A DNA stretch of 64,000 nucleotides, from the NCBI GenBank assembly GCA_020137815.1, contig CM035359.1, positions 6,696,001-6,760,000 of the forward strand, in the 5' to 3' direction. Below the pieces are notes generated by a model. The model was not told the origin of the DNA and did not search any database. It saw nothing but the letters and a program-made list of their open reading frames with translations. Origin of the DNA: Hormiphora californensis (lineage: Eukaryota > Animalia > Ctenophora). The translations under genes and the position numbers were made by a program. Positions 9,801 to 57,686 of this stretch are shown one piece after another; position 1 is the first letter of the stretch; each line of letters starts with the position of its first letter.

Positions 9801-9847
9801 AAGGTGACTGGAGTTGATTGACATCGTGATGGTGATCCTCTTGACAT
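6809..9847 (-). CDS. CRE polyprotein, 5' part (PHD-like finger, RT, zinc knuckle, RLE)
   Basis: ORF 6749..9877; first ATG at 9847; the last ~14 aa of the ORF-track protein come from the inserted TIR. Confidence 0.85.
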
Positions 9848-10925
9848 CGGGAAAGTGTGATGAGCATCTGGTGACAAGGGTCACCAGGGATCCTCCTCGG
9901 TCCTCAGGCAACAGGGCACGTGACTATGTTTAAGCCACGCGTGCCCAAACAAAAAGACAGAAAAACGAGAAGAGACGAGAGAGAAACCAAAACACACAGA
10001 TTTTTTGAAACTGTCACCCCAAAACGACCGCGCATGTGAAATTTATCAATTTCGACGCGCACACCACACGTTAACATGTGATGTGACGCGCAAAAACATT
10101 CCGCGCATGAAAAGGGGGGTGACAGTTTCAAAAAATCCGACTTTAGATTTTAACGTTTTCCTTGGCATACGTTGCAGGCCCCTTATAATATAATATAAGG
10201 GGCCTGGAGGGAATACCGCGCTGGGGGGGAATACATAAACAATCATATCTCCGGTTCCAGATAAGGTACAGAAATCGTTTTGGTAGCGTTGGAAAGAGGA
10301 AGATAACAGCTTTAAAATGCAACCGGTTTCAGGTCTCTATCTTATCAGGAACAGGAGATATGAACCAAACTCCGCAAAATCGAGTGCGGTAAAATAAAAA
10401 ATTCGAGATTTTAATTCAAATTTGAAACAAAGTGTCCCTGCAGGGATCTGTGACGTCACTTTTTGAAAACAACCCATCTTTGAACGGTTATTGCTCAGCC
10501 TCCTGAAGTCCAATTTACTTCTCTCAAAAACAGCAAGGTAGATAATTGTCAGATCTAACAGCTAGTGAAAGAATCAAGTCAAACGGACTTCAGGGGCCAA
10601 AGTTATAAGCACCGCCGTTTTTTCGCTCGCAAAGTTATCTTCGACCCAGCCGGGCCCGTCCTGAGCTCAGGCCAAACGCGCGCGCGGCATTCCCTTCAGT
10701 CCCCTCGTTGCGGGGGTGCGCGCATGAGGGGGCTGCAGCGCATTCCAAACGTTTTCCCGCGGACGACGCGTGTGTTTTTGATGAGAGATTTTAGCTAAAA
10801 TTTAGTCCAATCTGCGCGCCGCGTCCAAGCGGCGTCGTCGCAATATTAATTTATTCGCGCGCTACGTCTAAATAGCCAACTGCAACGTAACGTATTTAAA
10901 CTAAATTTATTTCCATAAGGAACCA

Positions 10926-12163: not shown

Positions 12164-12357
12164 AGAGTTTATACGTCGCTAAGTAGCGGCGCTTACCACA
12201 CAAGAGAATGAAATCACCATTCTCTTACTCTTAATATCTCTTACACGAAAATAAGAGTTATTTTGGAAATCAGTCAGCACCTGTCGCTTACTCCAGTAAG
12301 CGATTGCGAAATCAATCAGCACCTGCTAACTTCAGTAAGAGTCGTATGATATCCCTC
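12164..12357 (+). repeat. Dispersed repeat end; second copy at about 24323-24516
   Basis: Near-identical ~195 bp beginning AGAGTTTATACGTCGCTAAG; this copy is cut by the LINE that follows. Confidence 0.75.
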
Positions 12358-12359
12358 TA

Positions 12360-14340
12360 TGGTTACGTTATGGAGTTCAGTGCTAGTGAGATTTACGATG
12401 TTTTGTCTAAGCTTAATGCTCGCAAAGCTGCAGGCCCTGACGACATTCATAGCGTTATCTATAAGGAATGTGCTGGTCCCTTGGCGCATCCCCTCTCGAT
12501 ACTTTATAACCAGGCATACAATAGTTCTGCTCTTCCTAACATCTGGAAAGCTGCTAATGTGGTGCCTGTACATAAGTCGGGGGACACCAAGGATGTGCGC
12601 AATTACAGACCTATATCGCTTACTTGTATCATTATGAAGATCCTAGAGAGATTGATTTATAACCGTTTACTTAGCGTTTGTATTAGTAAGCTTGACAGTA
12701 GACAGCATGGCTTCCTACCTGGTAGGTCGTGTCTGACTCAACTCGTCCTGTTCCTCGATGATTTGATTTCTAATGATAATGAGAGAGTTGCTACCGATAT
12801 TATATATTTTGATTTCTCCAAGGCGTTTGACTCAGTTAATCACGACTTGATTCTGAGTAAAATCCGTAATAGATTTGGTATTGATGGCAAACTTCTGGGA
12901 TTAATCAGGGTGTATCTTATGGGTAGAACTCAAAGAGTGGTTGTAGGAGGGTGTTTTTCTTCTTTTCTCTCTGTTCTTAGTGGTGTTCCCCAGGGTAGTT
13001 TGCTAGGGCCGCTTCTATTTGTTATGTTTATTGACGACATCACTGAGTGCCTCGTAGGTAACACCAAAATGCTGTTGTATGCAGATGACCTGAAAGTATG
13101 GAGTAAGGTTGCCTGCCTGCAGGAACACTTGGACTTGCAGTTCACAGTAGATTGTCTACAATCTTGGGCAGTTGCCAATAAGATGGTGTTTCACCCGGGT
13201 AAGTGTAAGGTAGTCTCTACCCGAACGAGCTATTGGGTTGCCACTTGGAGTCAGCTACCTTTCTATCTTTACTCCTACAAACTTGCCGGAGTTGTGCTCG
13301 ATAATGTGGATATTCAGCGAGATCTTGGTATCTATGTATGCCGGGATCTCGACTGGAGGTACCATTGTCAGTACATTCTTGGTAAGTTTACTGACAGATT
13401 TAACTTATTACGTAGAACTATGTATATGATTGTAAACCCACACCAAAAACGTACCCTCTATGTTACCCTGGTGCGCTCATTTCTTGAGCACTGCTCTCCA
13501 ATCTGGACCCCACACCACGTGGGTGTTCTCAATGATCTGGAGGCTGCTCAAAAAAGATGCATTAAGTGGGTGTATGGTGTTAGCCCCCTTGATAGTTGGA
13601 GTGAGCGTGATTATTACGATAAACTAGTGACTCTTCGTATTTTACCCATTCGTGAGCAATTTTATTTCAACGATATGAAACTTTTATTCAAGATTATCCA
13701 TGGCCTAGCTCCGTACGGCCTCCCGGGTTATATTTGTTATATTCTCCCTACGGATTACTCATACAGGTCTAGACTGAATAAAGATATTGTTGACGGGGTC
13801 GATACTACAACTATCAAGTGTACTGTTGACCCTTGCACCAGTACTTTCCGTAACAGTTTTTTCTACCGATCTGTTAAAGCATGGAATTCTATCCCATATG
13901 AGATTAGACAAGCTACTTCGTATGATAGCTTTTGTTTACGTTTCAAATGCCACATTTTCAACTCTCTTGGTGACTAGGTTTAATTTCTATTTACCCCCCC
14001 CCCCCTATGTTACTTCCTCCTTATACATGCGCTCAGTGGTTTTTGACCTCTACCTGTATCCTGCTGGCATACCGGCTGCAACACATCTTCGTCAACTCGT
14101 CAACTCACCTCGCCTGCCCAACTCTTCGGTGTACACGATGGCAGTGTTTGGGAGGCAGCACGGGCTGAGAGATTTTTCATGGACTTGTGTTTCTGTGTGT
14201 ATTTTACAAAATTACCGTATAGTAATTTTAATAGACTCTGTTAAGGTGTGTCCTGAGGGTGCCGCCTGTAACCGCGGGTTTTTACCCTGTTGGTGGAGCC
14301 CTATGAGCTCGTTATGATTTATAAATTTTCCCGTTTTAAC
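12360..14340 (+). mobile_element. 5'-truncated CR1/L2-group LINE with uninterrupted RT domain (ORF ends 13977)
   Basis: KAAGPDDI, NYRPISLT, QHGFLPGRSC, DFSKAFDSVNH, GVPQGSLLGPLLF and LYADD motifs; no endonuclease part; 3' boundary approximate. Confidence 0.9.
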
Positions 14341-16170: not shown

Positions 16171-19100
16171 TCAGTAACTATCCTCGTCATCGATATTACC
16201 TTCAGATGTTAGCTCCTCGTACTCCTAAGAAATGGTGTGTTCGAGTAAGACAATTGTGGTTTACAGTGTAACATTGGCAACTATTTAGAATAGTGGGGTG
16301 CTGCGTGGAGTAAGTGCAGTATATTAACTGTTAGAGCTTGCAGCAGGAACCGACCGAATCGTGAAATACTGGTCACTGATTGGTATTTGGTTGATAACCA
16401 GTCACGTGACCTAAATAACGAGTTCTAATTGGTTGGTTAGAGCTTGCAGTTAATGTACCTGGATAAGATCCTGGATGCTTCCAAGTGCGACATCAAACTC
16501 CGACTCCTCAAGTCCCTCGCCCACATACCTGAAACGCAGTAGTGTGGGTACTGTGTGCGAGTGTTCTGTGTATCTAATGGAGATAATAGGGCAGGGTATC
16601 ATGGGAAGCTGGGTCTATTTGAACTTAGTTCGCCAGAAAGGTGACCCATTTTGTGCTTACTCCAGACTTATTCATTTCCAACACTTTTGAGTTGAAGGCG
16701 AATAGTTTACAGATACTTGCTGTATTTGAAGACTATACTTTATACTGCGGATCACGGACACAGCTGCGACTCAACAAAGCTGTGACAGAATTGAAGGAAT
16801 ATTACTAACCAGTGCACGAAGGCTCGTTTCCGGAACATTCTCTGGAACTTCTCAATCAATCTCTGCCAGGGTTGTTGCACGGCAGTGCTATTGCTCAGCA
16901 TGACACAACTTCTGCTGACCTCTGCCATATCGTCATCGGGGAACACACGAGGCTTGTTACTATTCAAACCAACCTAAAATAGAATTAGAAGAGGCTTGTT
17001 ACTTTGATAAGTCACAACCTAAAAGTAGAATTCGGATTTTGTTGCAGTCGGACCCCGGTTTACTGGGATTCTCGGGGAAAAGGCTTTCGCCTTGGTGACA
17101 TAGACACCTGGCGCGACCGAGATTGAGCTCGGGGGTCGCGCAAGGTGTCTATGTCACCAAGCTTTCGCCTGGTAAATCGGGGTTCCGGTATATCGGGGCC
17201 CGGTGAATGGCCCTTCCGCCTACGTACGAACACCGAAAATAAGTAAGCCCAATTGTCTCATGATTCGTGTGCCAACACAACACTATACTGGTACACCCGT
17301 ACAGTCGTGTTCCTCTCACCCACACGGGGACCATATGATGACTTGATGATTCGTGAAAGTACCTTGAATCCGGTAGGCATCCAATCAACGAAATGTGTGT
17401 CTTTCCTTGTTTTTATGTTGGTGATCGCTTTGTTGATGTCACTTGAGCTACCCTGCTCGAAGTCACCTCGGAACAACAAACAACACGACATGTAGAGACC
17501 CTGCCTGGAAATATTATTATAGTTATAGTACAGCTTCCACCGTTAGAAAACAATTGTTTTCGAAGACTTGACTTCGAGATTCGACCTTATAATACTGATA
17601 GCGGTCGTGACATCTCTAAACCAATAATTGATAGACCAAGATTCTAGGGGTCCGTATAAAGCCCCCGCGGTATAGTCACACTTACTTGACATTACATTTT
17701 ACAAACTGTAAGCCTCCGCGGTATAGTTTATTAGATCACTTACTTGACATTACATTTTACAAACTGGCTCTTCTCCTCAAAGACCTCGCTTACAACTTGA
17801 CTTGTGTTGTAGCTGGTGTGGGCGATCCGCTCCTTGCTGATTAGTGGGGCCATACTCACAATTGGGAACCGCACAGACGGGAAGGGAACCTAGGGAGAAA
17901 CATGTGTGTAATTGTCTTCCACGAGGGACAGAGCGAGAGAATTAATGCATTTGATCATTGAATATTAAGTGTCTGCGATGGAAATATGACGATATGTTAG
18001 ATCACTATGTTAGTTTATGGATGTCCATTGTCCTTGCCCCGTGAACTTTGAAGCTTCTGATACAGGCCCTAATATTGGATTTATAAAGTGCATCACGTGT
18101 TGTACGATCTTACCAGGTTGGTTTGGAACTCGTTCAGATCGACATTGAGGGAGCCATCGAATCGTAAACTACCAGTGAAACTACTAACAGCCTGTAAACA
18201 TTAAGTTATTGCCTAATGAGATATAGTAATTTCTTCAAAATCACCCCAATGATTCAACAAGGGTACGCCACCCAACTATAAAAATCACTCCACTAAAATT
18301 GCTCTACCACAATATTGTCCTTATTTGAACGACAACATGCAATAATATTGCTTACCTGAGCGACAAGTCTGTTAAGATTGTAATAGTTAGGCCACTCTAC
18401 ATCAAGTTTCTCCCGGCACAGGTCGAATACTGCTTCATTGTCCATCATAAAACAGACATCGTTTAGGTGCGGTGTCAAAATGGAGTTGTACGGTTCAACA
18501 ATGGACGTGGACACCTGCAGTAGTTGACATGAGTTGTGGTGCGGATCAGCTGCATGGATGTGACATGCTAACGCAGTAAAGCAGCAAGCGCGACGAGAGC
18601 AGATCATGATCATGCGTTTCAAGGTACATGGTTCTGAAATTTGTGATACAATTAATTGAATTATTCTAACGAACTAACGGCGGGCGAAGGGTAAATGGCG
18701 AACTCAAGTTTGCACTTTTTCCCCAGCGAATCCTGGATCCGTTCCACTAAAAGCGAGGAAAACCCGGAGCCGGTTCCACCACCGTATGATCGGAAGAGCA
18801 GGATACCCTGGAGGCTGTCGCAGTTCTCAGCGAGACGACGGTATTTTGATTCAGCATTTTCGATGTGACTCCGACCGATGGAGTAGTAACCACGTGCATA
18901 GTTATCAGAGGAATCCTCTTTACCTGAATTATAGATATGACGATATGTGTTAGCATGTTCTTTTGAATCACCCCCTGCAGTTCTATGGTAGTATATGACC
19001 CCTATTATAATAGTTATCAAACTTACCTCTTGACTATTCACTAACTAACTAACAACTATAATATAACTCTACTAGAGTTACTCTAGACGTGTGATCATGA

Positions 19101-20793: not shown

Positions 20794-23468
20794 TGTAATT
20801 TCAGGCTGAGCCCAATATTGTAAATAATTTTAGAATTGGAGTAGAGATAAAAATCAGGGCACGTAAGTGTGTAGCGCCCTCGCATTAGTGGAGGTAGACA
20901 CCCATGAAAAGTTCCTAACTCATTTGGTTAATTGGATAATTGGTTAATTAGATGTATGTATAGCCGTATTTCAACTAGTATTCAGTTCATATTATGACCG
21001 ACCATGCTTTGTGGCTTAGATAAGGTGTAAATGATCCTGAGGCCCTGATAGATATTCTTCAGGTGTTGCTAGAAAGCCTTCATATGTTGCTAGATACCCC
21101 TAGAACTCCCTAGATACACCTACATAATCATCCTAGAAACCCCTCAGAGCCCACAAGATTCTACTAAGTACCCCTCAGACCCGTTTGATAGCCTTTTAAG
21201 AGTTCAGACCCTTCTCTATACCCCTCAGAGCTAATTAGATACCCTCAGAACTTCTTCAGATCTACCTCTAGACCCCCTCAGACCCTGTTAGATACCTCTT
21301 AGGTCTTGTTAGATACCCTAGATAAAACCCTCCAAGATGCTCAGATTATACTAAACACCCATTAGACCGACTAGCAAAACTGGGGCGATCGTACCGATCG
21401 CAAATCGAGGGGTCTGTTTTTCTCTCTGCCTGTCTGCTATATGCTATGTGATGTGATCCCTCTCTTTTTCTCTCTTTCTCTCCCTTTTATACATGTGATG
21501 TGACCCCTCAAGTCGCAAGCAGTTCTCAACACGTGTGATACGTGATACCTACGAATCACGTCGTCACACTGACGGATCATGTCGTCACGCTGACGGATTA
21601 CGTCGTCACATTGACGGATCACGTCGTCACATTGACGATAGGGTGTCACAGTTAGATGAGACGTAAACATACCCTAGACCCTTCTAGCTTCTTATCACTC
21701 TAATAGACACCCTCAAAACAATCTACATACCCTCGAAATAATCTACATAGTAGGGTTTTATGGTTCTGTGGAATATCTAATGCCTAATTGGGTATGGGTG
21801 GTATCTAGAATGGCCTGAGATATATCTACCGTGTGGGGCAATAAAAATGCCCCCCCAAGTCTACCATAGTTCCAGATATCGTGGAGCGCTAAAATTTGGT
21901 TCAGTAACTTTATGAGACAAATAAATAACTTGACCAAAATTTCAGACCTCTAGCTCAAAATTCATTTTTTTGATCGGAATGAACATTGTCATTCATTCCA
22001 GGAAAAAATATTTTCCGGTTCAAAATTTAACCAATTATGTTTGGCTATCGATTAGCTTTCCAATGTGACCAAGATCAGCTAAATTGGACAACCACAAGAG
22101 ACACAGTGTCATGTTTCTTAAAGTTAGTCAGGTTATGTGATCTTCACTGAATCGTTGATCGTGTTCAGTATTACGAATTGGTCTAAGTGGTAGAGAATCA
22201 CGTATCACATCTGCTAATGAGGGATGACGATGCTGATTGGTCATGAGATCTGTAGCTCTTTGATAAATGTCCTCTTTCCTCGAATCACATCACCCTGTAT
22301 TGGTACACATACCCAATTAACGGCCATGATACGAGATTCCTTTGCCCATTGGCCCGATTAGCAATCTCGGAAACTAAACGATTCGATGAAGATCACATGA
22401 CCTGACTAACTTAAAGCAACATGACACTGTGTCTCTTGTGTTTGTCCAATTTAGCTGACCTTGGTCCCATTGGAAAGCAAATCGATAGCCAAACATAATT
22501 AGTTAAATTTTGGACCGGAAAATATTTTTTCCTGGAATGAATGACAATGTTCATTCCGATCAAAAAAATGAATTTTGAGCTAGCGGTCTGAAATTTTGGC
22601 CAAGTTATTTATTTGTCTCATAGAGTTACTGTACCAAATTTCAGCGCTCCACGATATCTGGAACTATGGTAGACTTGGGGGGGCATTTTTATTGCCCCAC
22701 ACGGTACAAGGATCTGATCGAGACTTGAGAGGTATCAAGAAGGGTCTAATGTGTATCTAGTAGAGTCTGAGTAGGTCTTATGGGTACCTAGTACGGTAAG
22801 ATATGGGTATCTAGAAGGATCTGAAGGGCATCTAGTGGAGTCTCAGAGTCTGAGGGGTATCTACTGGGGCCTGAGGGATCAGGAGGGATATCTTGTAGGG
22901 GTATTGTTTGAGGGTTTACTGTACGAGTATCTAGGATGGTTTAGGGGCATCTAGCATTGTCGCAAGATCTTAGGGATATCTAACAGGGTCTGAGGGGGTC
23001 TAGGGGTAGATCTGAAGAAGTTCTGAGGGTATCTAATTAGCTCTGAGGGGTATAGAGAAGGGTCTGAACTCTTAAAAGGCTATCAAACGGGTCTGAGGGG
23101 TACTTAGTAGAATCTTGTGGGCTCTGAGGGGTTTCTAGGATGATTATGTAGGTGTATCTAGGGAGTTCTAGGGGTATCTAGCAACATATGAAGGCTTTCT
23201 AGCAACACCTGAAGAATATCTATCAGGGCCTCAGGATCATTTACACCTTATCTAAGCCACAAAGCATGGTCGGTCATAATATGAACTGAATAATAGTTGA
23301 AATACGGCTATACATACATCTAATTAACCAATTATCCAATTAACCAAATGAGTTAGGAACTTTTCATGGGTGTCTACCCCCTAATGCGAGGACGCTACAC
23401 ACTACGTGCCCTGATTTTATCTCTACTCCAATTCTAAAATTATTTAATTTGGGTCAGCCGAAATTACA
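20794..23468. mobile_element. Large foldback element with ~500-bp near-identical arms
   Basis: 20794-21300 is the reverse complement of about 22978-23468; non-coding. Confidence 0.8.
21829..22704. mobile_element. Long-TIR non-autonomous element with TA TSD (Tc1/mariner-pogo type), nested in the foldback
   Basis: TA-CCGTGTGGGGCAATAAAAATGCC...GGCATTTTTATTGCCCCACACGG-TA; ~310-bp arms. Confidence 0.85.
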
Positions 23469-25730
23469 GAAAACAGCAAACCCCTAACTGCACCAATCTC
23501 GTCAGAAAATAATTTTAAAGGTTTCCATATTTCCACGGGCAAATACACGTTCTAAAATAAAAACATAAATTCAGTTCACTTACCGTTGATTTAGTAGCTG
23601 TAGTAACTTTGTAGTGGTTGACCGAGTAAAGAGAGTCAAGTTATACAATGTAGTGATTGGGCCCATTCACTGTTTATTTTCTCTTTTATATTGCACACCC
23701 GCGGTCATGGGTGACATTATAGTGCTGCTATATTTAGCTGCCATGATCATTGTTTAGCTAAGTTGTCAACTGGGTGGTAGAGGCGGAAATGTAATTGATA
23801 ACATTGGATATATCCGTAACATAATACCCAATACCAATGACTGTCAGCAAGTTAGCAAATGATTGTTTTAGTTTTAGTTCGACATTGAGGGAAATCATAC
23901 GACTCTTACTGCAGTTAGCGACAATCGAGAAAACAGACAGCATAACTCTTTTAAGCGACAGTGCTGTGTAATTTCTCAAAACTCTTATTCTTAGTGAGCA
24001 ACAGGGAAAAGAATTGGGGAGAGAAAGTGAGAGACAGGGTGCCCCCTTGAGAGAGATTATCTCGCGCGGCGCATTGGCACGTGCGGTTTGGGCGCTGGCA
24101 GGCTTTTGCATGTTGCAACATGTAAAAGCCTGCCAGCGCCCAAACCGCACGTGCCAGGGCGCCGCGCGTTACTATCTTGCTCTCTCTCACTCACTAGCTA
24201 CATTCTGATTGGCTGTTATCGATCACATGTACGCAGTCACAGGCTATCCCTGTGCACTAGGACTTATCACGTGACCTTTCACGTGACCACATGCTGAGAT
24301 CCCCGGTCAGTTAAGAGTTTTAAGAGTTTATACGTCGCTAAGTAGCGGCGCTTACTACACAAGAGAATGGAATCACCATTCTCTTACTCTTGATATCTCT
24401 TACAAGAAAATAAGAGTTATTTTGGAAAACAGTCAGCACCTGTCGCTTACTCCAGTAAGCGGTTGCGAAATCAATCAGCACCTGCTAACTTCAGTAAGAG
24501 TCGTATGATATCCCTCATTGCTACGTTCTGGGTGATACATACAAAGAAACAGCTTCCCCTATTATAATAGGGCCCGAGTTGGATTTGAATAACTTTTGAG
24601 TAATGAGTACCGTGTGCTAGGTGTTTGTTTATCTTTATAATGCAGGCAGCTGTAGCATGACACTAGCCATGAGGTGTTTCTATTCTCAGCTAGCAATATG
24701 ATCAATGGGTTTCTAATCCGATTTCCTATGACATCACGAAGATGACATCCCCATTGAATATAATATTCCAGCGAACATGCAGAGGGACGACGCCACACGC
24801 CCAAACATTATCCACAGATATATCCTGTCTATCTCTTTCTCTCCAACTCTTCACTCTCCCACTCCCCGGCCATCTCTTATTGCATTATTATCTTTGAATA
24901 TCGATACCTATAATCCTATCGTACACTCTTCTTTACCTTCCAAACATATTCCTACCCGTCCTGTCCTTTGTACTGCGTTGAACATCGTTTATCCTGCCAT
25001 TGCAGCATGCCCCAAGCTTATAAATATCGTGGTCTTGTTAGTGACCATCAATTACTGAAAGTTCATTCTGTTAGCTTAGTCAAGCACACACATATAATAT
25101 TGTAGGAAGTCCATTATAAAATCAACTCCCGTGATCGGGCTATCAAGGTATTACTTCTTTGCCTTGCTGATCGAGTAGCTCTCGAACTTTTTCTCAGTCC
25201 CCAGTCCCACTCTCAAAGAGATTTAATATGTTCCTGCATGACCTGAATATATGTTCCATTCCACGAAATTCCCACATAATTTAACCATCTAGTCTGCATG
25301 ATGGGAATTTCATATATTCAGCTCATGCTCCTGAAAGGGGGTTGAATTACATCTAAAATAAAATAAAATCACCCTTCCTTTGTGTTTTCTGTTTCTGAAT
25401 TGCCCATCCCTTTAGGAGCTGCAGCTTGTTCAAGTTCGGAGCTCCTTGACCGATTGAGCTGAATCTATCAGCTATGCTTTATGCTATATTGGATCTGGAT
25501 ATTTTAGTATCTTATTCTTAGTATTATGCTATCATCATCATTATTAGGCAGTAGTATATGGCGAGGATTTGGGACCCCTTTTTCGCTCGAATATGTCACT
25601 TCCATATATGGGCATGTCACGTGACACACATGATGTCACGTGACGTCACATGATGTCATATGATGTCACGTGATTATGACGTCACTTTGTGACTTTTGTG
25701 ACGTCACTAGCGCTGACAAGGAATTTTAAA

Positions 25731-25800
25731 GATCAGCTGGGTTTGAACTCGCTACCTTTGTAGCAAAAGTCAATCTCTTAGACCACTCGGCCACCGTGGC
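25731..25800 (-). promoter_or_regulatory. Mirror copy of the tRNA-like Pol III unit in the left TIR
   Basis: Reverse complement of 29346-29415. Confidence 0.6.
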
Positions 25801-26333
25801 AACAAAATCTTTGAAATTTGAGACGTTTTTAAATAGTAGGACTAGTGCCGTGATAATTGATCGTCTCTTTGTGACCTTTGTGACCTAGCCTAATGTACCG
25901 GCAAGGGCCACAGTATAGTGTAAAATGGTTGTACCACCTAAAAATGGGGTACACACGTGATCATAAAATAAATCAGTAAATCTGCGTAGAGCTGGCAAGC
26001 AACATTTGAAAATGGATGTTTTTAGCCGTTCCTAGCCATTCCTAGCTATTCCTTGTTAATTATAGGATTCGGAAAAGAGTTCCGAGTGTTCCTAGTCTAT
26101 TCTCCATATGCTATATGGGTGTTCCTAGCAGTTCTTTGGTGCTTTAATATGTTCCTAGTGTTCCTAGTCTGTTATTCACCGTTATTGGGTGTTTCTTGCC
26201 TGTTTCACACATCAGCAGGAACACACAGGAACATCATAAGAACGCGTTGGAACGGTTAAAAACAACTTAAAACACAGAAAATACGCTATTTTTGGTTGAT
26301 CTAAATAAATAGAATGATAATACATACATCAAC

Positions 26334-27098
26334 TTAATTTTCATATTCTAGACTTGCAATAAGTGATAGTGTTCTCCCGATAATTTGAAAAATATTGTAA
26401 AACTCTTTCGAATGTTTTAAAAGTAGCCGTTTAATTTCTTCTAGGCTTTTGCAATCCACCAGATTGATCAATTTTCTACCGTTCACACTTAGACGCTTTC
26501 TCTGAGGGACAACAAGAGGAACAACTCCATACTTTAGACCGATAAATAGGCTTTTAATCGCTTTGACTAGTCTATTGCTGCGTACAATCGAAGCATAGCC
26601 TTTCATATCCATCAATCGTCGTAGTTCTAGATAGTCTCGGATATTTTTAGAGTTGATTATTGTATCCGAGAACTCATAGAACTTCGTGTCATTAAAATTA
26701 GTCTTGAATTCATCTAATTGTTTCTCAAACAGGAGAATTCTCTCAAGATGCTGTTTTGTTTCATTCAACTTTGATTTGTACAATCTCTCATATTTCCGAG
26801 CTTGTTGATCTCGTTTTCGGTACAACGACTTGAAGTCAATATCCTTCAATGGATCAGATTTTTCCTCAATATCATCTTCCTCAATATCATCTTCCTCAAT
26901 ATCATCTTCCTCATCCTCCAGATCAATATTTACTTCATTAACCTTATTTATTGATGATTCCTCATTTGGAACGTCTTCTGTTTTGTCATCAGCTGAGTCA
27001 CTACCAGTCGGCCCCCATTTTTTGTGATCATATTTTTGATGTTGAAGAAGAAGATAAACAGTCGTAAATTCCTCATCGCACAAATCGCATGGAAACAT
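26334..27098 (-). CDS. Polinton-borne 254-aa protein: C2H2 zinc finger, acidic tract, coiled coil, basic helical C-terminal domain
   Basis: FPCDLCDEEFTTVYLLLQHQKYDH; TATAAAAGG at 27140-27132; intact ORF. Confidence 0.8.
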   Translation of the reverse strand: MFPCDLCDEEFTTVYLLLQHQKYDHKKWGPTGSDSADDKTEDVPNEESSINKVNEVNIDLEDEEDDIEEDDIEEDDIEEKSDPLKDIDFKSLYRKRDQQARKYERLYKSKLNETKQHLERILLFEKQLDEFKTNFNDTKFYEFSDTIINSKNIRDYLELRRLMDMKGYASIVRSNRLVKAIKSLFIGLKYGVVPLVVPQRKRLSVNGRKLINLVDCKSLEEIKRLLLKHSKEFYNIFQIIGRTLSLIASLEYEN

Positions 27099-27165
27099 GT
27101 TTACAGAAATGAATTAAAAAAGACAAGTGTTCCTTTTATAGTCGTCACTGTTCCTACATCGGTGC

Positions 27166-27555
27166 TTACTGTTCCTCTTTATTCCCACAATTTGGACAAT
27201 CTTCGTTCTCTTCCGAGAACACCTTTTCCGTGATATCTTCCACTATTTCTAGATTTTGTTGGAGCAATTCGCGAATCACGAACAATGAGTCGTTATCCTT
27301 TATCGCATTTATCAGAAGCTCCTCTTCTGGTGTCAGCTCAATCTCAGTCAAATCTGCATTAATTAGATATTGCTTCAAACCAAAACATTGCAATAGGCTC
27401 GAGTATGGCGTTTCACTTTCGACTTTTGGTGAATCCATCTCTTCATCAGACAATTCCACCTCCGAGTCAGAGTCTGTGTCAGGGTCAGAATCAGAGCTGT
27501 TTCGCTTTTTGTCATTCAAGCGTATAGTTTTTAGAAAAGAAGTTGAACGAGACAT
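27166..27555 (-). CDS. Polinton-borne 129-aa acidic protein with C-terminal CxxC
   Basis: Intact ATG ORF; TATAAAAGG at 27599-27591. Confidence 0.7.
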   Translation of the reverse strand: MSRSTSFLKTIRLNDKKRNSSDSDPDTDSDSEVELSDEEMDSPKVESETPYSSLLQCFGLKQYLINADLTEIELTPEEELLINAIKDNDSLFVIRELLQQNLEIVEDITEKVFSEENEDCPNCGNKEEQ

Positions 27556-28054
27556 TGTTCGAAATGATTACTTTTCATGGAAAACATCTCCCTTTTATAG
27601 CGTTCCCGGGTGTTCTCTCGACGTTCCGATGTGTTCTTTTCAAAAGCTAATTGGTTCCTCTGTGTTCCTTTCGGAACCCTTTGATTCCTTGCTGTTCTTT
27701 CGATTTCATGTTTATTCTTAGGTGTTCTTAACCGTTCTTACGACGTTCCTGTGTGCTCCTGTGATACGTGAAAACAAACGAGAAACACCCAATAACGGTG
27801 AATAACAGACTAGGAACACTAGGAACAGATTGAACCACAAAGGAACTGCTGGGAACGCCCGTAGAGCACACGGAGAATGGACTAGGAACACTAGGAACGC
27901 TTTTACGGTTCCTAGAATCAGCAAGGAACGGCTAGGAATACCTAGGAACAGTTATAAACACCCATTGGGTTGCTTGTCAGCACGTCGATAAGAGAGGTAG
28001 AACATCCAGTAATTAGGTATATAAACCACGAGTATTCAGTTTTATTATTTCAAA

Positions 28055-28489
28055 ATGGATACATTTATCTCCACTGTACCCGATGACCTCAAAGAAGTCT
28101 ACAAAAAACACTGGGCTACTATTAGACCGAGCGTTAAAAATGGATTATTGAAAGACATGTATCATTTTCCAATCTCTCCTTATGATAGCATCCCTGGGAA
28201 GCTCGGTGGAGTACTGAAATATTACAAAAAACCTGTAAAAGTCAATGTAGCTTTTGGATACATATTAAGGAACACTGAAACGGATGAGTTGAAGTTTTTC
28301 CATCCATCCAACAATACAATGGTGTTTGAAACAGCACAAGTCATAGCAGATCAAGACGATATAATGAAAGTAAAGAATGAAATCGAAAGAGATGATTTAG
28401 TTGAAATAGCACGCGAATCAAGACATTCTTCGAAATGGGTGGTTGAGACCATTGTTTGCATACGTTTTGATGTATACAGATATTCTTGA
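28055..28489 (+). CDS. Polinton-borne 144-aa protein resembling the N-terminal (terminal-protein-like) domain of Polinton pPolB
   Basis: KVNVAFGYILRNTETDELKFFHPSNN...SKWVV pattern recognised from memory; TATATAAA at 28018-28025; CAAAATGG start context. Confidence 0.7.
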   Translation: MDTFISTVPDDLKEVYKKHWATIRPSVKNGLLKDMYHFPISPYDSIPGKLGGVLKYYKKPVKVNVAFGYILRNTETDELKFFHPSNNTMVFETAQVIADQDDIMKVKNEIERDDLVEIARESRHSSKWVVETIVCIRFDVYRYS

Positions 28490-29345
28490 AGTTTTTATTC
28501 ACAAATTCAATGATTAATAGAGTTTAAAATGCAATCGGAGAACACTATCACTTATTACAAGTCTAGAATATGAAAATTAAGTTGATGTATGTATTATCAT
28601 TCTATTTATTTAGATCAACCAAAAATAGCGTATTTTCTGTGTTTTAAGTTGTTTTTAACCGTTCCAACGCGTTCTTATGATGTTCCTGTGTGTTCCTGCG
28701 ATGTGTGAAACAGGCAAGAAACACCCAATAACGGTGAATAACAGACTAGGAACACTAGGAACATATTAAAGCACCAAAGAACTGCTAGGAACACCCATAT
28801 AGCATATGGAGAATAGACTAGGAACACTCGGAACTCTTTTCCGAATCCTATAATTAACAAGGAATAGCTAGGAATGGCTAGGAACGGCTAAAAACATCCA
28901 TTTTCAAATGTTGCTTGCCAGCTCTACGCAGATTTACTGATTTATTTTATGATCACGCGTGTACCCCATTTTTAGGTGGTACAACCATTTTGTTTTTTTC
29001 AACATTTAAAAAAAATCAGTTGTTTTATGACTTTTTATACGTTTCATGCATCCGCTTTCATGAAAAGAAATTGGAAAATACATATCTATATAATCCCCGA
29101 TAGTTGTATAATCAGTCGACGTTCATGGTACATATATAGCTCTCAAATATCTAGATATGTCGTCCTAAGTCCATCCTCCAGCACCTTTCTCTTCACGTAA
29201 ATGTGGTTAAGACCCGATTTTTTCACAGAGTACTGTGGCCCTTGCCGGTACATTAGGCTAGGTCACAAAGGTCACAAAGAGACGATCAATTATCACGGCA
29301 CTAGTCCTACTATTTAAAAACGTCTCAAATTTCAAAGATTTTGTT

Positions 29346-29415
29346 GCCACGGTGGCCGAGTGGTCTAAGAGATTGACTTTTGCTACAAAGGTAGCGAGTT
29401 CAAACCCAGCTGATC
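29346..29415 (+). promoter_or_regulatory. tRNA-like Pol III A/B box unit in the right TIR
   Basis: A box TGGCCGAGTGG at 29353-29363 and B box GTTCAAACC at 29398-29406 with tRNA spacing; stems do not pair well. Confidence 0.6.
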
Positions 29416-29837
29416 TTTAAAATTCCTTGTCAGCGCTAGTGACGTCACAAAAGTCACAAAGTGACGTCATAATCACGTGACATCATATGACATCATGTGA
29501 CGTCACGTGACATCATGTGTGTCACGTGACATGCCCATATATGGAAGTGACATATTCGAGCGAAAAAGGGGTCCCAAATCCTCGCCATATACTACTTTAG
29601 GCGTGTCTAGTATAAAGTTATAGTGATCTTATATACGAGGAAGACCTATAATCTCTTGTGTAGATACTCGAGTAAGCCGGAAGAAGTCTAAGTACCCAAC
29701 ATTCAAACAATGTACCGTAGTTTGTTATGTTCTAATAACCATTAACCCTCCTTCGAAATTTGTTTGCCACTGCGGGGAGAGGTGCACTGATGCAGAGGGA
29801 TGGTCGAGCAAGGCAAGGCCGTAGTGTGACGTGTTAT

Positions 29838-40000: not shown

Positions 40001-43000
40001 AATTGCAGTGTATGTAGGGGATGACATGATGAATATGCTGTTTTTTCTTGGAACCAGAGCATTCATCATCTGGCAAAGAGGGCTTAGCCATGATCATAAT
40101 TCCATCAGCCTTTTGCGGGATAATTTCTGCAGTCATTGCAGTAGGGGGAGAAGCTTTAAGAAGACAAAACCATTGCGACACTCAGCTCAGGTGTTCCAGC
40201 TATCTGTATTAATTACAAAGCCATATGTTTCAACTTTCATTCATCATACATGCACAATATGTAATTTATTATTGAGAAGTCGAGTTCTATAGAAGCAATT
40301 TCCTATAGGAATTCCTTCTGCAAATCTTCCCGAAAAGCTCGCCTGTCATTTCTCTCTTTTTCTCTCTCCATGAACCAATTGAAACCAGCTATTGCATCAT
40401 GGTCATAAACTCCTATCCCTGCAATGCTTCCAGAAGTTTTAATGCTGTCAGGTATAACACACGTACTTTTCGCTGGTAGTTATTATAGGAGTCATCTTTT
40501 GAAACCACTATCATTCAGGTAGGCGGTAAATGTTAACCAGATCTGAGAGAAAACGTACGTGCAAAACCACGTTTTTGTCCATAACTCAGGCATTTCTTGA
40601 CCAATTTCCAAAATCTTGGGTGCGTTGGAAAGAGGACATTGAGCTCTTTCAAATGAGCCCAATAAAACTAAAATCGGCGCTAAATGCGCGGCGTCATGGC
40701 GCAAAATGCGCGTTTTCGCCACCACGCCGCGCAATTTGCGCCAATTTTTATTTTCTTGAGCTCATTTGATAGATCTCAATGTCCTCTTTCCAATGAGCCA
40801 AAGATTTTGCAAATTGGTCAAGAAATGGCTGAGTTATGGGCAAAAACGTGCGAAATTCTCACAGATCTGGTTAACATTTACCGCCTACCTATCATTCAGG
40901 CTTGAAAAATGAAACAAAGCCTGTATGGCGGCGCCCATTATAACCCAATTTGACAGTGCGCTCAGATGGGGTCAGCGGCGCCAGACAGAACAAAGCTAAA
41001 GCACATATGAAGCAAACTGTTATAAAGCCGGGCCATAAAGCTAGTAAAGTTGATATTTAATTAATTAGTATGGTATCTTCATGCGTCAAACCGAAATCTT
41101 TCAATGCCTTAAATCGTATTGACCTATTTCAATGCTGATCGACAGATTCGATAAACTCGATATAATTAATAGATGATTAATAGGTCTTCACAAAATGTCA
41201 AACGTGTAAATATTTTTCTCTGCCCCCCTCTCTCTCCCTCTCAATCTGGCTCTCTTCTCATTCTTTGTCCATTTTCACTCGTAACTATATGCTCTATGAA
41301 TGTATGATATATGTGAGTCATGACTCGCATAATATATTGCAGTGCAACATACACTATAAGACAGGTGTGAGAAGTAAAACAATTTTCTAGAACTTCCAAA
41401 ATTTCCTTCCTGTGTTCAAAAGCTGAGCAGCATGCAGGCCCCCCACGAAAGGAACCACCCTACCATATAGCTTCTCCTGAAAGGAACCACCCTACCATAT
41501 AGCTTCTCCTGAAAGGAACCACCCTACCATATAGCTTCTCCTGAAAGGAACCACCCTACCATATAGCTTCTCCTGAAAGGAACCACCCTACCATATAGCT
41601 TCTCCTGAAAGGAACCACCCTACCATATAGCTTCTCCTGAAAGGAACCACCCTACCATATAGCTTCTCCTGAAAGGAACCACCCTACCATATAGCTTCTC
41701 CTGAAAGGAACCACCCTACCATATAGCTTCTCCTGAAAGGAACCACCCTACCATATAGCTTCTCCTGAAAGGAACCACCCTACCATATAGCTTCTCCTGA
41801 AAGGAACCACCCTACCATATAGCTTCTCCTGAAAGGAACCACCCTACCATATAGCTTCTCCTGAAAGGAACCACCCTACCATATAGCTTCTCCTGAAAGG
41901 AACCACCCTACCATATAGCTTCTCCTGAAAGGAACCACCCTACCATATAGCTTCTCCTGAAAGGAACCACCCTACCATATAGCTTCTCCTGAAAGGAACC
42001 ACCCTACCATATAGCTTCTCCTGAAAGGAACCACCCTACCATATAGCTTCTCCTGAAAGGAACCACCCTACCATATAGCTACTCCTGAAAGGAACCACCC
42101 TACCATATAGCTACTCCTGAAAGGAACCACCCTACCATATAGCTACTCCTGAAAGGAACCACCCTACCATATAGCTACTCCTGAAAGGAACCACCCTACC
42201 ATATAGCTACTCCTGAAAGGAACCACCCTACCATATAGCTACTCCTGAAAGGAACCACCCTACCATATACTACCTAACCCTACATATAGCTACTCCTGAA
42301 AGGAACCACCCTACCATATAGCTACTCCTGAAAGGAACCACCCTACCATATAGCTACTCCTGAAAGGAACCACCCTACCATATAGCTACTCCTGAAAGGA
42401 ACCACCCTACCATATAGCTACTCCTGAAAGGAACCACCCTACCATATAGCTACTCCTGAAAGGAACCACCCTACCATATAGCTACTCCTGAAAGGAACCA
42501 CCCTACCATATAGCTACTCCTGAAAGGAACCACCCTACCATATAGCTACTCCTGAAAGGAACCACCCTACCATATAGCTACTCCTGAAAGGAACCACCCT
42601 ACCATATAGCTACTCCTGAAAGGAACCACCCTACCATATAGCTACTCCTGAAAGGAACCACCCTACCATATAGCTACTCCTGAAAGGAACCACCCTACCA
42701 TATAGCTACTCCTGAAAGGAACCACCCTACCATATAGCTACTCCTGAAAGGAACCACCCTACCATATAGCTACTCCTGAAAGGAACCACCCTACCATATA
42801 GCTACTCCTGAAAGGAACCACCCTACCATATAGCTACTCCTGAAAGGAACCACCCTACCATATAGCTACTCCTGAAAGGAACCACCCTACCATATAGCTA
42901 CTCCTGAAAGGAACCACCCTACCATATAGCTACTCCTGAAAGGAACCACCCTACCATATAGCTACTCCTGAAAGGAACCACCCTACCATATAGCTACTCC

Positions 43001-46000
43001 TGAAAGGAACCACCCTACCATATAGCTACTCCTGAAAGGAACCACCCTACCATATAGCTACTCCTGAAAGGAACCACCCTACCATATAGCTACTCCTGAA
43101 AGGAACCACCCTACCATATAGCTACTCCTGAAAGGAACCACCCTACCATATAGCTACTCCTGAAAGGAACCACCCTACCATATAGCTACTCCTGAAAGGA
43201 ACCACCCTACCATATAGCTTACTCCTGAAAGGAACCACCCTACCATATAGCTTACTCCTGAAAGGAACCACCCTACCATATAGCTTCTCCTGAAAGGAAC
43301 CACCCTACCATATAGCTTCTCCTGAAAGGAACCACCCTACCATATAGCTTACTCCTGAAAGGAACCACCCTACCATATAGCTTACTCCTGAAAGGAACCA
43401 CCCTACCATATAGCTACTCCTGAAAGGAACCACCCTACCATATAGCTACTCCTGAAAGGAACCACCCTACCATATAGCTACTCCTGAAAGGAACCACCCT
43501 ACCATATAGCTACTCCTGAAAGGAACCACCCTACCATATAGCTACTCCTGAAAGGAACCACCCTACCATATAGCTACTCCTGAAAGGAACCACCCTACCA
43601 TATAGCTACTCCTGAAAGGAACCACCCTACCATATAGCTACTCCTGAAAGGAACCACCCTACCATATAGCTACTCCTGAAAGGAACCACCCTACCATATA
43701 GCTACTCCTGAAAGGAACCACCCTACCATATAGCTACTCCTGAAAGGAACCACCCTACCATATAGCTACTCCTGAAAGGAACCACCCTACCATATAGCTA
43801 CTCCTGAAAGGAACCACCCTACCATATAGCTACTCCTGAAAGGAACCACCCTACCATATAGCTACTCCTGAAAGGAACCACCCTACCATATAGCTACTCC
43901 TGAAAGGAACCACCCTACCATATAGCTACTCCTGAAAGGAACCACCCTACCATATAGCTACTCCTGAAAGGAACCACCCTACCATATAGCTACTCCTGAA
44001 AGGAACCACCCTACCATATAGCTACTCCTGAAAGGAACCACCCTACCATATAGCTACTCCTGAAAGGAACCACCCTACCATATAGCTACTCCTGAAAGGA
44101 ACCACCCTACCATATAGCTACTCCTGAAAGGAACCACCCTACCATATAGCTACTCCTGAAAGGAACCACCCTACCATATAGCTACTCCTGAAAGGAACCA
44201 CCCTACCATATAGCTACTCCTGAAAGGAACCACCCTACCATATAGCTACTCCTGAAAGGAACCACCCTACCATATAGCTACTCCTGAAAGGAACCACCCT
44301 ACCATATAGCTACTCCTGAAAGGAACCACCCTACCATATAGCTACTCCTGAAAGGAACCACCCTACCATATAGCTACTCCTGAAAGGAACCACCCTACCA
44401 TATAGCTACTCCTGAAAGGAACCACCCTACCATATAGCTACTCCTGAAAGGAACCACCCTACCATATAGCTACTCCTGAAAGGAACCACCCTACCATATA
44501 GCTACTCCTGAAAGGAACCACCCTACCATATAGCTACTCCTGAAAGGAACCACCCTACCATATAGCTACTCCTGAAAGGAACCACCCTACCATATAGCTA
44601 CTCCTGAAAGGAACCACCCTACCATATAGCTACTCCTGAAAGGAACCACCCTACCATATAGCTACTCCTGAAAGGAACCACCCTACCATATAGCTACTCC
44701 TGAAAGGAACCACCCTACCATATAGCTACTCCTGAAAGGAACCACCCTACCATATAGCTACTCCTGAAAGGAACCACCCTACCATATAGCTACTCCTGAA
44801 AGGAACCACCCTACCATATAGCTACTCCTGAAAGGAACCACCCTACCATATAGCTACTCCTGAAAGGAACCACCCTACCATATAGCTACTCCTGAAAGGA
44901 ACCACCCTACCATATAGCTACTCCTGAAAGGAACCACCCTACCATATAGCTACTCCTGAAAGGAACCACCCTACCATATAGCTACTCCTGAAGGAACCAC
45001 CCTACCATATAGCTACTCCTGAAAGGAACCACCCTACCATATAGCTACTCCTGAAAGGAACCACCCTACCATATAGCTACTCTGAAAGGAACCACCCTAC
45101 CATATAGCTACTCCTGAAAGGAACCACCCTACCATATAGCTTACTCCTGAAAGGAACCACCCTACCATATAGCTACTCCTGAAAGGAACCACCCTACCAT
45201 ATAGCTTCTCCTGAAAGGAACCACCCTACCATATAGCTTCTCCTGAAAGGAACCACCCTACCATATAGCTATCTCCTGAAAGGAACCACCCTACCATATA
45301 GCTTCTCCTGAAAGGAACCACCCTACCATATAGCTACTCCTGAAAGGAACCACCCTACCATATAGCTACTCCTGAAAGGAACCACCCTACCATATAGCTA
45401 CTCCTGAAAGGAACCACCCTACCATATAGCTACTCCTGAAAGGAACCACCCTACCATATAGCTTACTCCTGAAAGGAACCACCCTACCATATAGCTACTC
45501 CTGAAAGGAACCACCCTACCATATAGCTACTCCTGAAAGGAACCACCCTACCATATAGCTACTCCTGAAAGGAACCACCCTACCATATAGCTACTCCTGA
45601 AAGGAACCACCCTACCATATAGCTACTCCTGAAAGGAACCACCCTACCATATAGCTACTCCTGAAAGGAACCACCCTACCATATAGCTACTCCTGAAAGG
45701 AACCACCCTACCATATAGCTACTCCTGAAAGGAACCACCCTACCATATAGCTACTCCTGAAAGGAACCACCCTACCATATAGCTACTCCTGAAAGGAACC
45801 ACCCTACCATATAGCTACTCCTGAAAGGAACCACCCTACCATATAGCTACTCCTGAAAGGAACCACCCTACCATATAGCTACTCCTGAAAGGAACCACCC
45901 TACCATATAGCTACTCCTGAAAGGAACCACCCTACCATATAGCTACTCCTGAAAGGAACCACCCTACCATATAGCTACTCCTGAAAGGAACCACCCTACC

Positions 46001-49000
46001 ATATAGCTACTCCTGAAAGGAACCACCCTACCATATAGCTACTCCTGAAAGGAACCACCCTACCATATAGCTACTCCTGAAAGGAACCACCCTACCATAT
46101 AGCTACTCCTGAAAGGAACCACCCTACCATATAGCTACTCCTGAAAGGAACCACCCTACCATATAGCTACTCCTGAAAGGAACCACCCTACCATATAGCT
46201 ACTCCTGAAAGGAACCACCCTACCATATAGCTACTCCTGAAAGGAACCACCCTACCATATAGCTACTCCTGAAAGGAACCACCCTACCATATAGCTTCTC
46301 CTGAAAGGAACCACCCTACCATATAGCTACTCCTGAAAGGAACCACCCTACCATATAGCTACTCCTGAAAGGAACCACCCTACCATATAGCTACTCCTGA
46401 AAGGAACCACCCTACCATATAGCTACTCCTGAAAGGAACCAGTACCCTACCATATAGCTACTCCTGAAAGGAACCACCCTACCATATAGCTACTCCTGAA
46501 AGGAACCACCCTACCATATAGCTACTCCTGAAAGGAACCAGTACCCTACCATATAGCTACTCCTGAAAGGAACCACCCTACCATATAGCTACTCCTGAAA
46601 GGAACCACCCTACCATATAGCTACTCCTGAAAGGAACCACCCTACCATATAGCTTCTCCTGAAAGGAACCACCCTACCATATAGCTACTCCTGAAAGGAA
46701 CCAGTACCCTACCATATAGCTTCTCCTGAAAGGAACCACCCTACCATATAGCTACTCCTGAAAGGAACCACCCTACCATATAGCTACTCCTGAAAGGAAC
46801 CACCCTACCATATAGCTTCTCCTGAAAGGAACCAGTACCCTACCATATAGCTTCTCCTGAAAGGAACCAGTACCCTACCATATAGCTACTCCTGAAAGGA
46901 ACCACCCTACCATATAGCTACTCCTGAAAGGAACCACCCTACCATATAGCTACTCCTGAAAGGAACCACCCTACCATATAGCTACTCCTGAAAGGAACCA
47001 CCCTACCATATAGCTTCTCCTGAAAGGAACCACCCTACCATATAGCTACTCCTGAAAGGAACCACCCTACCATATAGCTACTCCTGAGTGAGCTTATCAC
47101 TCTCTAACTTTAGGTTGTTCGAAGCTGTATATAGAAAATCATTTTCCTCCTCTCGCGGGTTGTATCCACAACTTATTATTAATTAATCATAGCTAATTGA
47201 TAATCAATTATAACTTATTAGGTAATTAACTTATCATTAGGTAATTAACTAATTGATAATTAACATTTCAGGTGAGTTGGATGAAGAATGGATTTGAGTT
47301 GGAGATGGATGAGCTTAACATGAAGATGGATAATACTGGAATGCTAATTCTCCAACAGGTAACTGCTCTTCCTTTGGTTACGAAGTCACCCCTTTTATTG
47401 GATATACTCCGTGAGCTATATTACGCGGAGAGGTAATTTCATTACCAAGATCTTCGTCCTCCAACTGTGAGCTTCGGGTACTCTGGAGATTCTAGTATGA
47501 TAGGGGGTAGCCCTATTAGGAGCTCCGACTGGGGGTTCGTGGGCTGTGAGTGTTTTGGGGTTCTCCTGGACGAGTGGGATGTCTCAGTGCACATGCACGT
47601 GAAACAACCGTAGGGAAGGATGACTAGGGGTGGATGAATCCTAGTATAGTACTCGAACACAATAAAACAACACGGTTCACCACGGTATGAACATCAAAGT
47701 ACGAAGTTTGGGATACAACACTAAAAGATACTCGGGTCGGTCACAACTCACACTTTACAATCTTTTCTCGCTCCTTGCTTATAAACTCCTAGTACTCAGA
47801 CATCACGTGACTCTTTACTAAAGCTAGAACCGTGCTTCACCTAGGACCAAAGTTAGCGGATCTGCCGTGCCGATAGATGTCAACAGCAGGCAGGCTAGAC
47901 CAACTCACTTTTCCATATCTCGAGCCTAGCTCTAACACGGGTCTCTGCCAGGGGTGTAGGAATAGTGGGGGGGGGGCGAGGGGGGCGGCCGCCCCCCCCC
48001 CACTTTTGGAGGTTCGCCCCCTCACTTTTGTCGCCAACAGTCAACACTCACTCCCAAATGACGAAATCATGACTTTTTGGCTCAAAACCCTAAAAATTTT
48101 CTCGGGCTCCGCTGTCGCTCCGCCCGATGTATAGTAAATGCAATGGAATAGGTGGCTAAATCTTGCTCACAAAAAAATTTCTTGGGCGCTGGCCAGCGCT
48201 GTAATTGGTCACGTGACTTCGCCCCCTCACTTGAAAAATCATTCCTACACCCCTGGTCTCTGCGTCTCCGAAACTCATCAGTTACAGTTCACCAAACTCA
48301 AGCTAGCTACCAGTCGAGTTCTCTCTTCTTGACACGATGACAAGTTACAAGACGAAAGAACTAAACCAGTGCTACTCTGCTATTTGGCTTCTTCACACTT
48401 GTTTCTTTCCCGAAAACAAGCTACCATACCAAATAATAATATCACTGAGCTAGATGTAAAGGGGGGTATAGGGGGTTCTTGCATACTCTACACAACTACT
48501 AATACATCATGTAGTTTAACGGAATAGGAGTATGTTCATGGAAAGATCATATTGGTGATTTTACAAGTGATTTTACAGACCGAGTACGAAGCTACGGGTA
48601 CCTACCAGTGTGTTGCTAACAACTTCTGTGGCACATCCAAAGCAGAATGCAACGTGAATGTCTGTAAGTCAAGAATATGCAACTGTACTAATTAGCAACA
48701 TTCCTTAATTAGTGTGATATATTACTCGATTCCTATTTGTACTATGTATACATCGGGAAACAAATTTTGTAGACCAAAAAATCAAAATTTACTTCATTTT
48801 ATTAATTTCTATCGAAACTGTTTTACTATTTTTACTGAAAACAGTAAAACAGTAGTATATCAGATCACAATGATTACCTTTCCCAGCTCGTCGAGATCCT
48901 GATAGATGTGAGGAGGGGGTTGCGTTGGTGGAATGTTTTGCGGATCCCTGTATGGACATGGTGTGTGAGGGAATGCCTGAGGTAATTATGATCTGAATTT

Positions 49001-57648: not shown

Positions 57649-57686
<38 letters not shown>

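Follow-up and report, generated by a model that had tools for sequence, protein, structure and literature searches.

A stand-alone homologue of the Polinton terminal-protein domain on a non-autonomous mini-element

The polymerases of Polintons (pPolB) are described as a terminal-protein (TP) domain, D1, followed by a vOTU protease and then by the exonuclease, and the proposal there is that the protease severs itself from the TP, which stays on the DNA (10.1101/2024.03.18.585575). In PRD1-type TPs the linking residue follows the last helix and precedes the last strand, and helical extensions are thought to let the PRD1 and adenovirus TPs bind the polymerase (same source). The Stylophora coral polinton (StCAV) has its TP as a separate gene and the vOTU on pPolB, which section 10 of PMC11161782 reads as a split, and polintons without polB are described in 10.1101/2025.02.07.637071. 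The passage from a fused TP in Polintons to a separate one in adenoviruses is an open evolutionary step, for which published work proposes a simple split, exemplified by one coral polinton, and Polinton protein priming so far rests on models. The comparison with print also covered passages of PMC8502044, PMC11071296, 10.64898/2026.10.13.758929 and 10.1101/2023.08.22.554363, and HPSNN had no match in the part of the PMC8502044 supplement that was searched. Full-text searches of open-access literature turned up, among the matches listed, neither a second TP gene beside a fused one nor a TP-carrying non-autonomous Polinton. A separate polinton TP has one precedent; the apparently widespread second copy described below, and its carriage on a mobile mini-element, we did not find in print.

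In the 64,000-nucleotide stretch of Hormiphora californensis DNA analysed here (the window), a TP-like gene of 144 amino acids runs from ATG to TGA at 28055-28489 on the forward strand, with its own TATA box (TATATAAA, 28018-28025, same strand) 30 nt 5' of the ATG. This bears out the gene structure of the original prediction, and the three segments that it had quoted as matching animal pPolB (YKKHWATIR, KVNVAFGYILRNTETDELKFFHPSNN and SKWVV) are all present in the translation. TATAAA is also found, as scored by eye, at most 70 nt 5' of the gene in 12 of the 21 locus homologues with upstream sequence. The gene is uncovered in RNA runs X19, X20 and X22, whose contigs are shallow and say nothing on expression. 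No significant Pfam family was found for the 144-aa ORF, and the TP-like family as a whole has no Pfam model and almost no names. A PDB sequence match to the TAF1 bromodomain (E 3e-4) was rejected as an identity, since it covers 50 residues only and the model of the protein is alpha/beta, while the bromodomain fold is all-helical.

The predicted mini-element around the gene is real. It measures 4,047 bp (25550-29596), starts with AGTAGT, ends with ACTACT and is flanked on either side by TTAGGC (25544-25549 and 29597-29602), a 6-bp target-site duplication. The left outer terminal inverted repeat (25550-25915, 366 bp), beginning AGTAGT, is 100% identical to the right one (29231-29596), which ends ACTACT. 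Inside these lie inner inverted arms: the left (25922-26381, 460 bp) is 99% identical to the right (28534-28991) and contains the last 16 codons of ORF A, and the right starts 45 bp past the TP-like stop with an inverted copy of the ORF A 3' tip. A 240-bp part of the inner arm recurs a third time, in diverged form (84%), at 27730-27966 and makes a direct repeat with 28666-28902, so that these two copies flank the TP-like gene. Directly inside the right outer repeat, on the reverse strand, is a pPolB relic consisting of the last 29 codons and the stop (29143-29232), with its 3' flank at 28992-29142, giving the right arm an extra 239 bp. The relic is 59% identical by tblastn to residues 1336-1364 of P0364, a pPolB discussed below, and is the sole match within the window (E 8e-7) to a profile of 77 pPolB C-termini. 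These 29 codons are all that survives of the element's own parent pPolB, and because of this 3' relic in the right arm we regard the element as a deletion derivative of a pPolB-bearing Polinton.

Non-autonomous Polintons have AG termini and 6-bp duplications. The element matches such Polinton/Maverick derivatives in its long terminal inverted repeats with AG(T) termini, its 6-bp duplication, its descent from a pPolB-bearing element and its lack of integrase and polymerase. The whole autonomous set (pPolB, integrase, ATPase, protease, capsid) is absent, and the core genes of related loci match nothing in the element except the pPolB relic. It differs from other non-autonomous Polintons in keeping three intact ORFs, one of them the TP homologue, together with the 29-codon relic; these three are the only ORFs of at least 70 aa inside it. 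ORF A (26334-27098, reverse strand, 254 aa, TATAAA 37 nt upstream) has a C2H2 finger (Pfam zf-C2H2 E 0.002, below the cut-off), an acidic stretch, a coiled coil and a C-terminal helical domain resembling adintovirus GasderminX, which is the top Foldseek match (E 0.024, TMt 0.73, rmsd 2.8) of a model with pLDDT 68. ORF B (27166-27555, reverse strand, 129 aa, TATAAA 39 nt upstream) is acidic, with no relative or family found by Pfam or in the locus comparisons. Runs X3 and X4, from one sample, join both flanks with a single target copy (shorter side 30 letters), and this empty site makes a recent insertion likely.

Likeness of the TP-like protein to pPolB D1 spans the whole 144 aa, at 25-32% identity and profile E values down to 1e-29. 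The family profile matches the N-terminal part of proteins of 1,093-1,487 aa (P0069, P0073 and P0080, E 8e-25 to 2e-23, the lowest value belonging to P0069 with 1,487 aa). Of the 25 long profile matches scanned, six contain Pfam DNA_pol_B_2, and other long matches align to the polymerase of L015, one of the metagenome loci. A word-based search had returned no longer homologues, which we attribute to limited sensitivity since the profile search later found them. In fused copies D1 is followed by an xIG linker, seen in 50 of 60, and by a DNxC[FL]FRC motif, the vOTU domain of Krupovic et al.; the stand-alone family ends there. The predicted stop at the domain end is hence confirmed, as is the assignment to the pPolB N-terminus, although the domain was placed before the exonuclease and the vOTU protease in fact lies between. 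Judged on sequence, the ORF is a stand-alone homologue of the Polinton pPolB terminal-protein domain.

The fold predicted for the protein is in agreement with this homology. The AlphaFold2 model (pLDDT 92, pTM 0.86) has strands at 26-28, 33-39, 61-73, 79-82, 95-97 and 128-142, helices at 46-54, 100-109 and 112-122, and a loop at 123-127. Its topology, b0-b1-a1-b2-hairpin-b3-a-a2-loop-b4, agrees with the published description of PRD1-type TPs, with a four-stranded sheet plus b0 and two helices in an arrangement like that of little-finger (LF)/PAD domains. The top viral match in Foldseek was an adintovirus C2H2 protein of 560 aa (E 8e-5, TMq 0.50, rmsd 12.7); polymerases of bidnavirus type and of MELD viruses came next (E 4e-3 to 4e-2, rmsd 3.5-4.5), and in the PDB nothing was found at E 0.001. 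In VIA-align, eight of the first 15 rows were little-finger domains of Y-family polymerases (Z 4.7-5.5, rmsd 2.9-3.8, 86-98 residues aligned; rmsd 2.9 for the PolIV 240-340 row), the top row being an unrelated designed protein (Z 5.9) and all Z values middling (below 8). Published D1 models match the same little-finger entries at Z 6.2-8.5 (PMC11161782). PRD1 TP and adenovirus pTP are absent from the 50 rows shown of the fold searches, and the homologue P0021 gave no usable Atlas match.

Resemblance to the TP fold was also seen in an uncharacterised protein of Ostreid herpesvirus 1 (V9QMP0, E 6.5e-3, TMq 0.45), in Orpheovirus proteins and, more weakly, in abalone herpesvirus, possibly reflecting TP-like domains captured by larger DNA viruses. 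Two further proteins have D1 in other settings: in P0037 (858 aa) a long array of C2H2 fingers ends in D1 and there is no vOTU, and in P0127 (1,246 aa) D1 lies inside an HLH and zinc-finger protein. Each could be a domestication or a gene-model artefact.

The stand-alone form is a family of its own. Of 44 candidates of similar length, 33 proved to be relatives, with identities of 44-97%; 24 of them are 142-152 aa long. The stand-alone relatives share start, end and motifs, with a family length of 137-150 aa, and the closest named relative of the ORF is Pleurobrachia bachei protein P0002 (90% identity). The family profile reached 1,654 proteins at E 0.001, of which the best 150 were inspected, and a metagenome scan yielded 22 loci out of 244 pattern matches. 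No loci came from IMG/VR, scanned for the TP family and for pPolB, or from phage records, and in GTDB one 725-bp contig in a bacterial bin matches the family and is likely stray DNA.

Sequences were sorted by rule into 114 stand-alone, 60 fused and 53 other, the last left out, and thinned at 90% identity to 51 stand-alone and 60 fused rows. A quick tree on 148 columns placed 48 of the 51 stand-alone rows on one branch (SH-aLRT 85); the other three are likely pPolB fragments, because they fall among the fused D1s and carry the fused signature. Between locus homologues, dN/dS was 0.04-0.24 in all 15 unsaturated pairs, dS being saturated in 11 more; the set comprised 21 genes and 26 pairs above 62% identity, and the window's own gene had no partner so close. 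Going by these codon comparisons, the stand-alone family is under purifying selection.

Could the gene be merely the 5' fragment of a pPolB, left by a deletion, as those three misplaced rows appear to be? The rearrangement junction close behind the stop would suit such an origin. However, the junction lies 45 bp beyond the stop codon, and what the element retains of pPolB is the 3' tip, on the opposite strand, with its break some 650 bp from the TP-like gene. The ORF also ends 4-13 residues past the same conserved Asp139 in 19 of the 22 loci (in two the contig ends first, and in one the stop comes early), and a profile of the linker and vOTU start, built from 55 sequences, detected no remnant in the window or in 23 loci, with controls at E 1e-24 or better. 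With a shared start and the family signature in addition, we find the fragment hypothesis scarcely tenable, and consider it ruled out by the conserved length, the signature, selection and the absent vOTU remnant. Both observations that were named in advance as fatal to the original prediction, a lack of homology to pPolB N-termini and a stop coinciding with the deletion breakpoint of a longer pPolB, are therefore contradicted.

The loop between the last helix (a2) and the last strand (b4) of the model contains Ser125 and Ser126, and by analogy with the position given by Krupovic et al. we designate Ser126 (28430-28432, forward strand), located from model and alignment, as the candidate linking, or priming, residue. 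Position 126 is Ser or Thr in all 60 fused rows, in 47 of 51 stand-alone rows and in 45 of the 48 rows of the stand-alone clade; two of the three clade exceptions have Ser at 125. Pro124 is present in 41 of the 51 stand-alone rows and is His in the window's copy. The protein thus resembles pPolB D1 (Krupovic et al. 2024, PMC11161782) in homology over 144 aa, in predicted fold and in the Ser/Thr of the linking loop. It differs from it in being a separate gene with its own TATA box, in having no zinc fingers, linker, vOTU or polymerase, and in a signature of H37, F81, C135, R137 and D139 that sets the stand-alone family apart from the fused domains. By strand alternation, four of the five signature residues are inferred to lie on the open sheet face of the model, and this altered surface suggests a changed partner or role.

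A changed role is indeed the essence of one alternative, in which the protein would be a re-purposed paralogue that does not prime, its little-finger-like fold instead binding the terminal repeats or origin DNA for end protection, origin opening, packaging or transcription control. The fold does match DNA-binding LF/PAD domains, H37, C135, R137 and D139 are conserved at 82-90% in the family and nearly absent from fused D1, priming is already covered by the fused TP, and the gene often sits 385-668 bp from the element end. Against this, 45 of 48 rows retain the linking Ser/Thr and the R-P-x-[ST]-x-W loop despite deep divergence, although a pure DNA binder would not need to keep either. We judge this alternative unlikely.

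The gene's neighbours in related loci place it in larger Polintons. Core Polinton genes adjoin it in five of the 22 metagenome loci: an rve integrase in L002, an rve integrase with a P-loop ATPase in L017, an adenain-like protease in L014, and a pPolB 3' end in L015 and L022. TACTACT, an end-like motif, occurs 385-668 bp past the stop in L002, L004, L010 and L011, and the similarity between L010 and L011 ends exactly at it. Six loci (L004, L009-L012 and L016) pair the gene with a zinc-finger and helical ORF like ORF A, significantly so for L004, where the homologue adjoining the TP-like gene matches ORF A at BLASTP E 4e-9. As a separate observation, L008 and L018-L021 have accessory genes in common with L017 (1177-3409), a block of four or five unnamed genes after the TP-like gene that marks one Polinton lineage; three accessory genes of the L017 type were scanned and had no Pfam match. 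The idea that the gene was the mini-element's own invention is accordingly not supported, as larger Polintons regularly have it as a separate gene and members of the mini-element family without it seem to exist.

Among relatives both forms of the domain are found: the stand-alone gene beside core genes, and a fused D1 in the pPolBs P0364 and P0317. In L015 the gene directly follows a pPolB that shares 88% identity over 711 aa with P0364. This protein of 1,364 aa has motifs resembling zinc fingers, a complete D1 (hhalign probability 97.6), a VPIG linker and the Cys motif of the vOTU. Similarly, the proteome of Pleurobrachia bachei holds both the stand-alone P0002 and the fused-D1 pPolB P0317. 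No single contig contains the stand-alone gene together with a complete pPolB, and coexistence rests on the 88% relative and the shared proteome. We take the pPolB D1 relatives here to be the zinc-finger, VSR-type pPolB2 group, a label that comes partly from Jeong et al.

An adenovirus-type split, as in the Stylophora polinton, would have left the parent pPolB without D1 and the TP-like gene as its only terminal protein. There is a precedent in print (PMC11161782), the N-terminus of the parent pPolB is absent here, and several long pPolB records start at the vOTU, though many start at internal methionines. However, the nearest full relative of the pPolB beside the gene, P0364, retains the full D1, as does the P. 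bachei pPolB, and the stand-alone protein of L015 is 30% identical to the D1 of P0364 and falls on a different branch of the tree, as expected of an old duplication. A split is for these reasons distinctly improbable; because P0364, so close to the L015 pPolB, keeps both fused TP and vOTU, the stand-alone gene probably represents a second copy of the TP alongside the fused domain. The locus is like StCAV, which we compare by its description only, in that a polinton TP has its own gene and an active-looking vOTU stays on pPolB. In StCAV pPolB begins with the vOTU, whereas here the nearest pPolB keeps D1, and the stand-alone genes form a wide family that is also found on non-autonomous elements. 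The vOTU is inactive in adenovirus, while in P0364 and P0317 the catalytic Cys motif and a downstream His are kept. With adenovirus pTP and phage PRD1 TP the window protein shares, by analogy, the status of a stand-alone primer-type protein and, by published description, the core fold; those proteins are much larger and have helical extensions that it lacks.

Taken together, we propose that the gene is conserved, was likely inherited from a full Polinton that likely kept its fused copy, and likely acts as a free, spare protein primer, a reading we hold to be marginally probable. Mechanistically, each pPolB chain with a fused TP would prime only once, because the vOTU is believed to detach the TP, which then stays on the DNA end. 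If a free TP were expressed from its own TATA promoter and Ser126 accepted the nucleotide, the processed polymerase could restart at the AGTAGT ends. The stand-alone protein ends about where the vOTU cut is proposed. Having neither polymerase nor integrase, the mini-element would depend on a helper and recruit its enzymes in trans; the gene would add a primer and seems optional.

This optional character is suggested by joints from 27708 or 27722 to 28650 that skip the TP-like gene in contigs of X1, X4 and X10 (sides of 33-35 letters); they run between the flanking 240-bp repeats, and repeats can mislead such joints. As joined forms lacking the gene occur, it seems dispensable in cis, and the family of mini-elements appears to move without it. 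In X4 contigs, ORFs A and B reach 10-40 times the depth of the flanks and the TP-like gene stays near flank level, which is a hint only, depth being no copy number. Judging from joints and depth, ORFs A and B (26334-27555) with their flanking repeats seem to make up a TIR-A-B-TIR family that lacks the TP-like gene and is the commoner one, in both organisms coded A and B.

Several findings weigh against the primer. The gene-skipping contigs of X1, X4 and X10 are one, and the remodelled conserved surface (H37, F81, C135, R137, D139) another. The stand-alone family is also without the helical extensions of the PRD1 and adenovirus TPs, and Ser/Thr126 is less strict in stand-alone than in fused copies. 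The middling VIA-align Z values, topped by an unrelated designed protein, and the failure of any contig to show the stand-alone gene with a complete pPolB count on the same side. Carrying no weight either way, a complex prediction that paired the TP-like protein of L015 with the polymerase core from that locus, in which alignments were unused and the partner fold was uncertain, scored 0.00.

The original prediction had offered a decoy as its other option. Such a protein would tie up the polymerase or DNA ends that belong to a helper or rival Polinton, damping its replication, possibly to the host's benefit, which would fit a carrier element without polymerase and a surface unlike that of fused TPs. 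But the gene is a standing component of elements with integrase, ATPase, protease or pPolB, is under purifying selection and keeps the linking residue, and mini forms without it occur. A decoy is in our estimate highly doubtful, and we favour a primer, as far as sequences can tell, on the strength of the retained Ser/Thr at the putative linking site and of the gene's presence in elements with core genes.

More tentatively, and with greater doubt than confidence, we suggest a widespread marine-animal Polinton lineage with a two-primer system, in which a fused TP would be joined by a free TP gene at the genome end and defective mini-elements would exploit a helper's polymerase while bringing their own primer. 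If so, one polymerase could initiate many times, and the arrangement would be a living, duplication-first intermediate towards the adenovirus-type split TP. More generally, if a fused TP is accompanied by a conserved second gene for it, an alternative route to a separate TP is available, by duplication and then loss. A small, well-folding protein of 144 aa with a predicted linking serine suits a first direct test of Polinton protein priming; should it not prime, it would represent a new use of the TP fold.

Further features lie elsewhere in the window. An open frame of 1,043 aa at 6749-9880 (reverse strand) has reverse-transcriptase-like motifs and is presumably of non-LTR retrotransposon type. 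The frame at 3016-3912 (forward strand), between 126-nt inverted repeats at 2347-2472 and 6681-6806, and that at 12235-13977 (forward strand) we likewise take to be non-LTR reverse-transcriptase-like. Foldback elements at 20890-23381, 49817-50756, 56630-58996 and 62472-63341 have inverted arms of 150-420 nt and no long ORF, and at about 41300-47000 units of 32 bp and related ones form a long tandem array that is strongly strand-skewed. The frame at 18293-18613 (reverse strand) presumably contains a tubulin-like exon. Finally, at 59622-60713 (forward strand), where several frames are open, there is a repetitive frame of 363 aa rich in Gly, Met and Ser.
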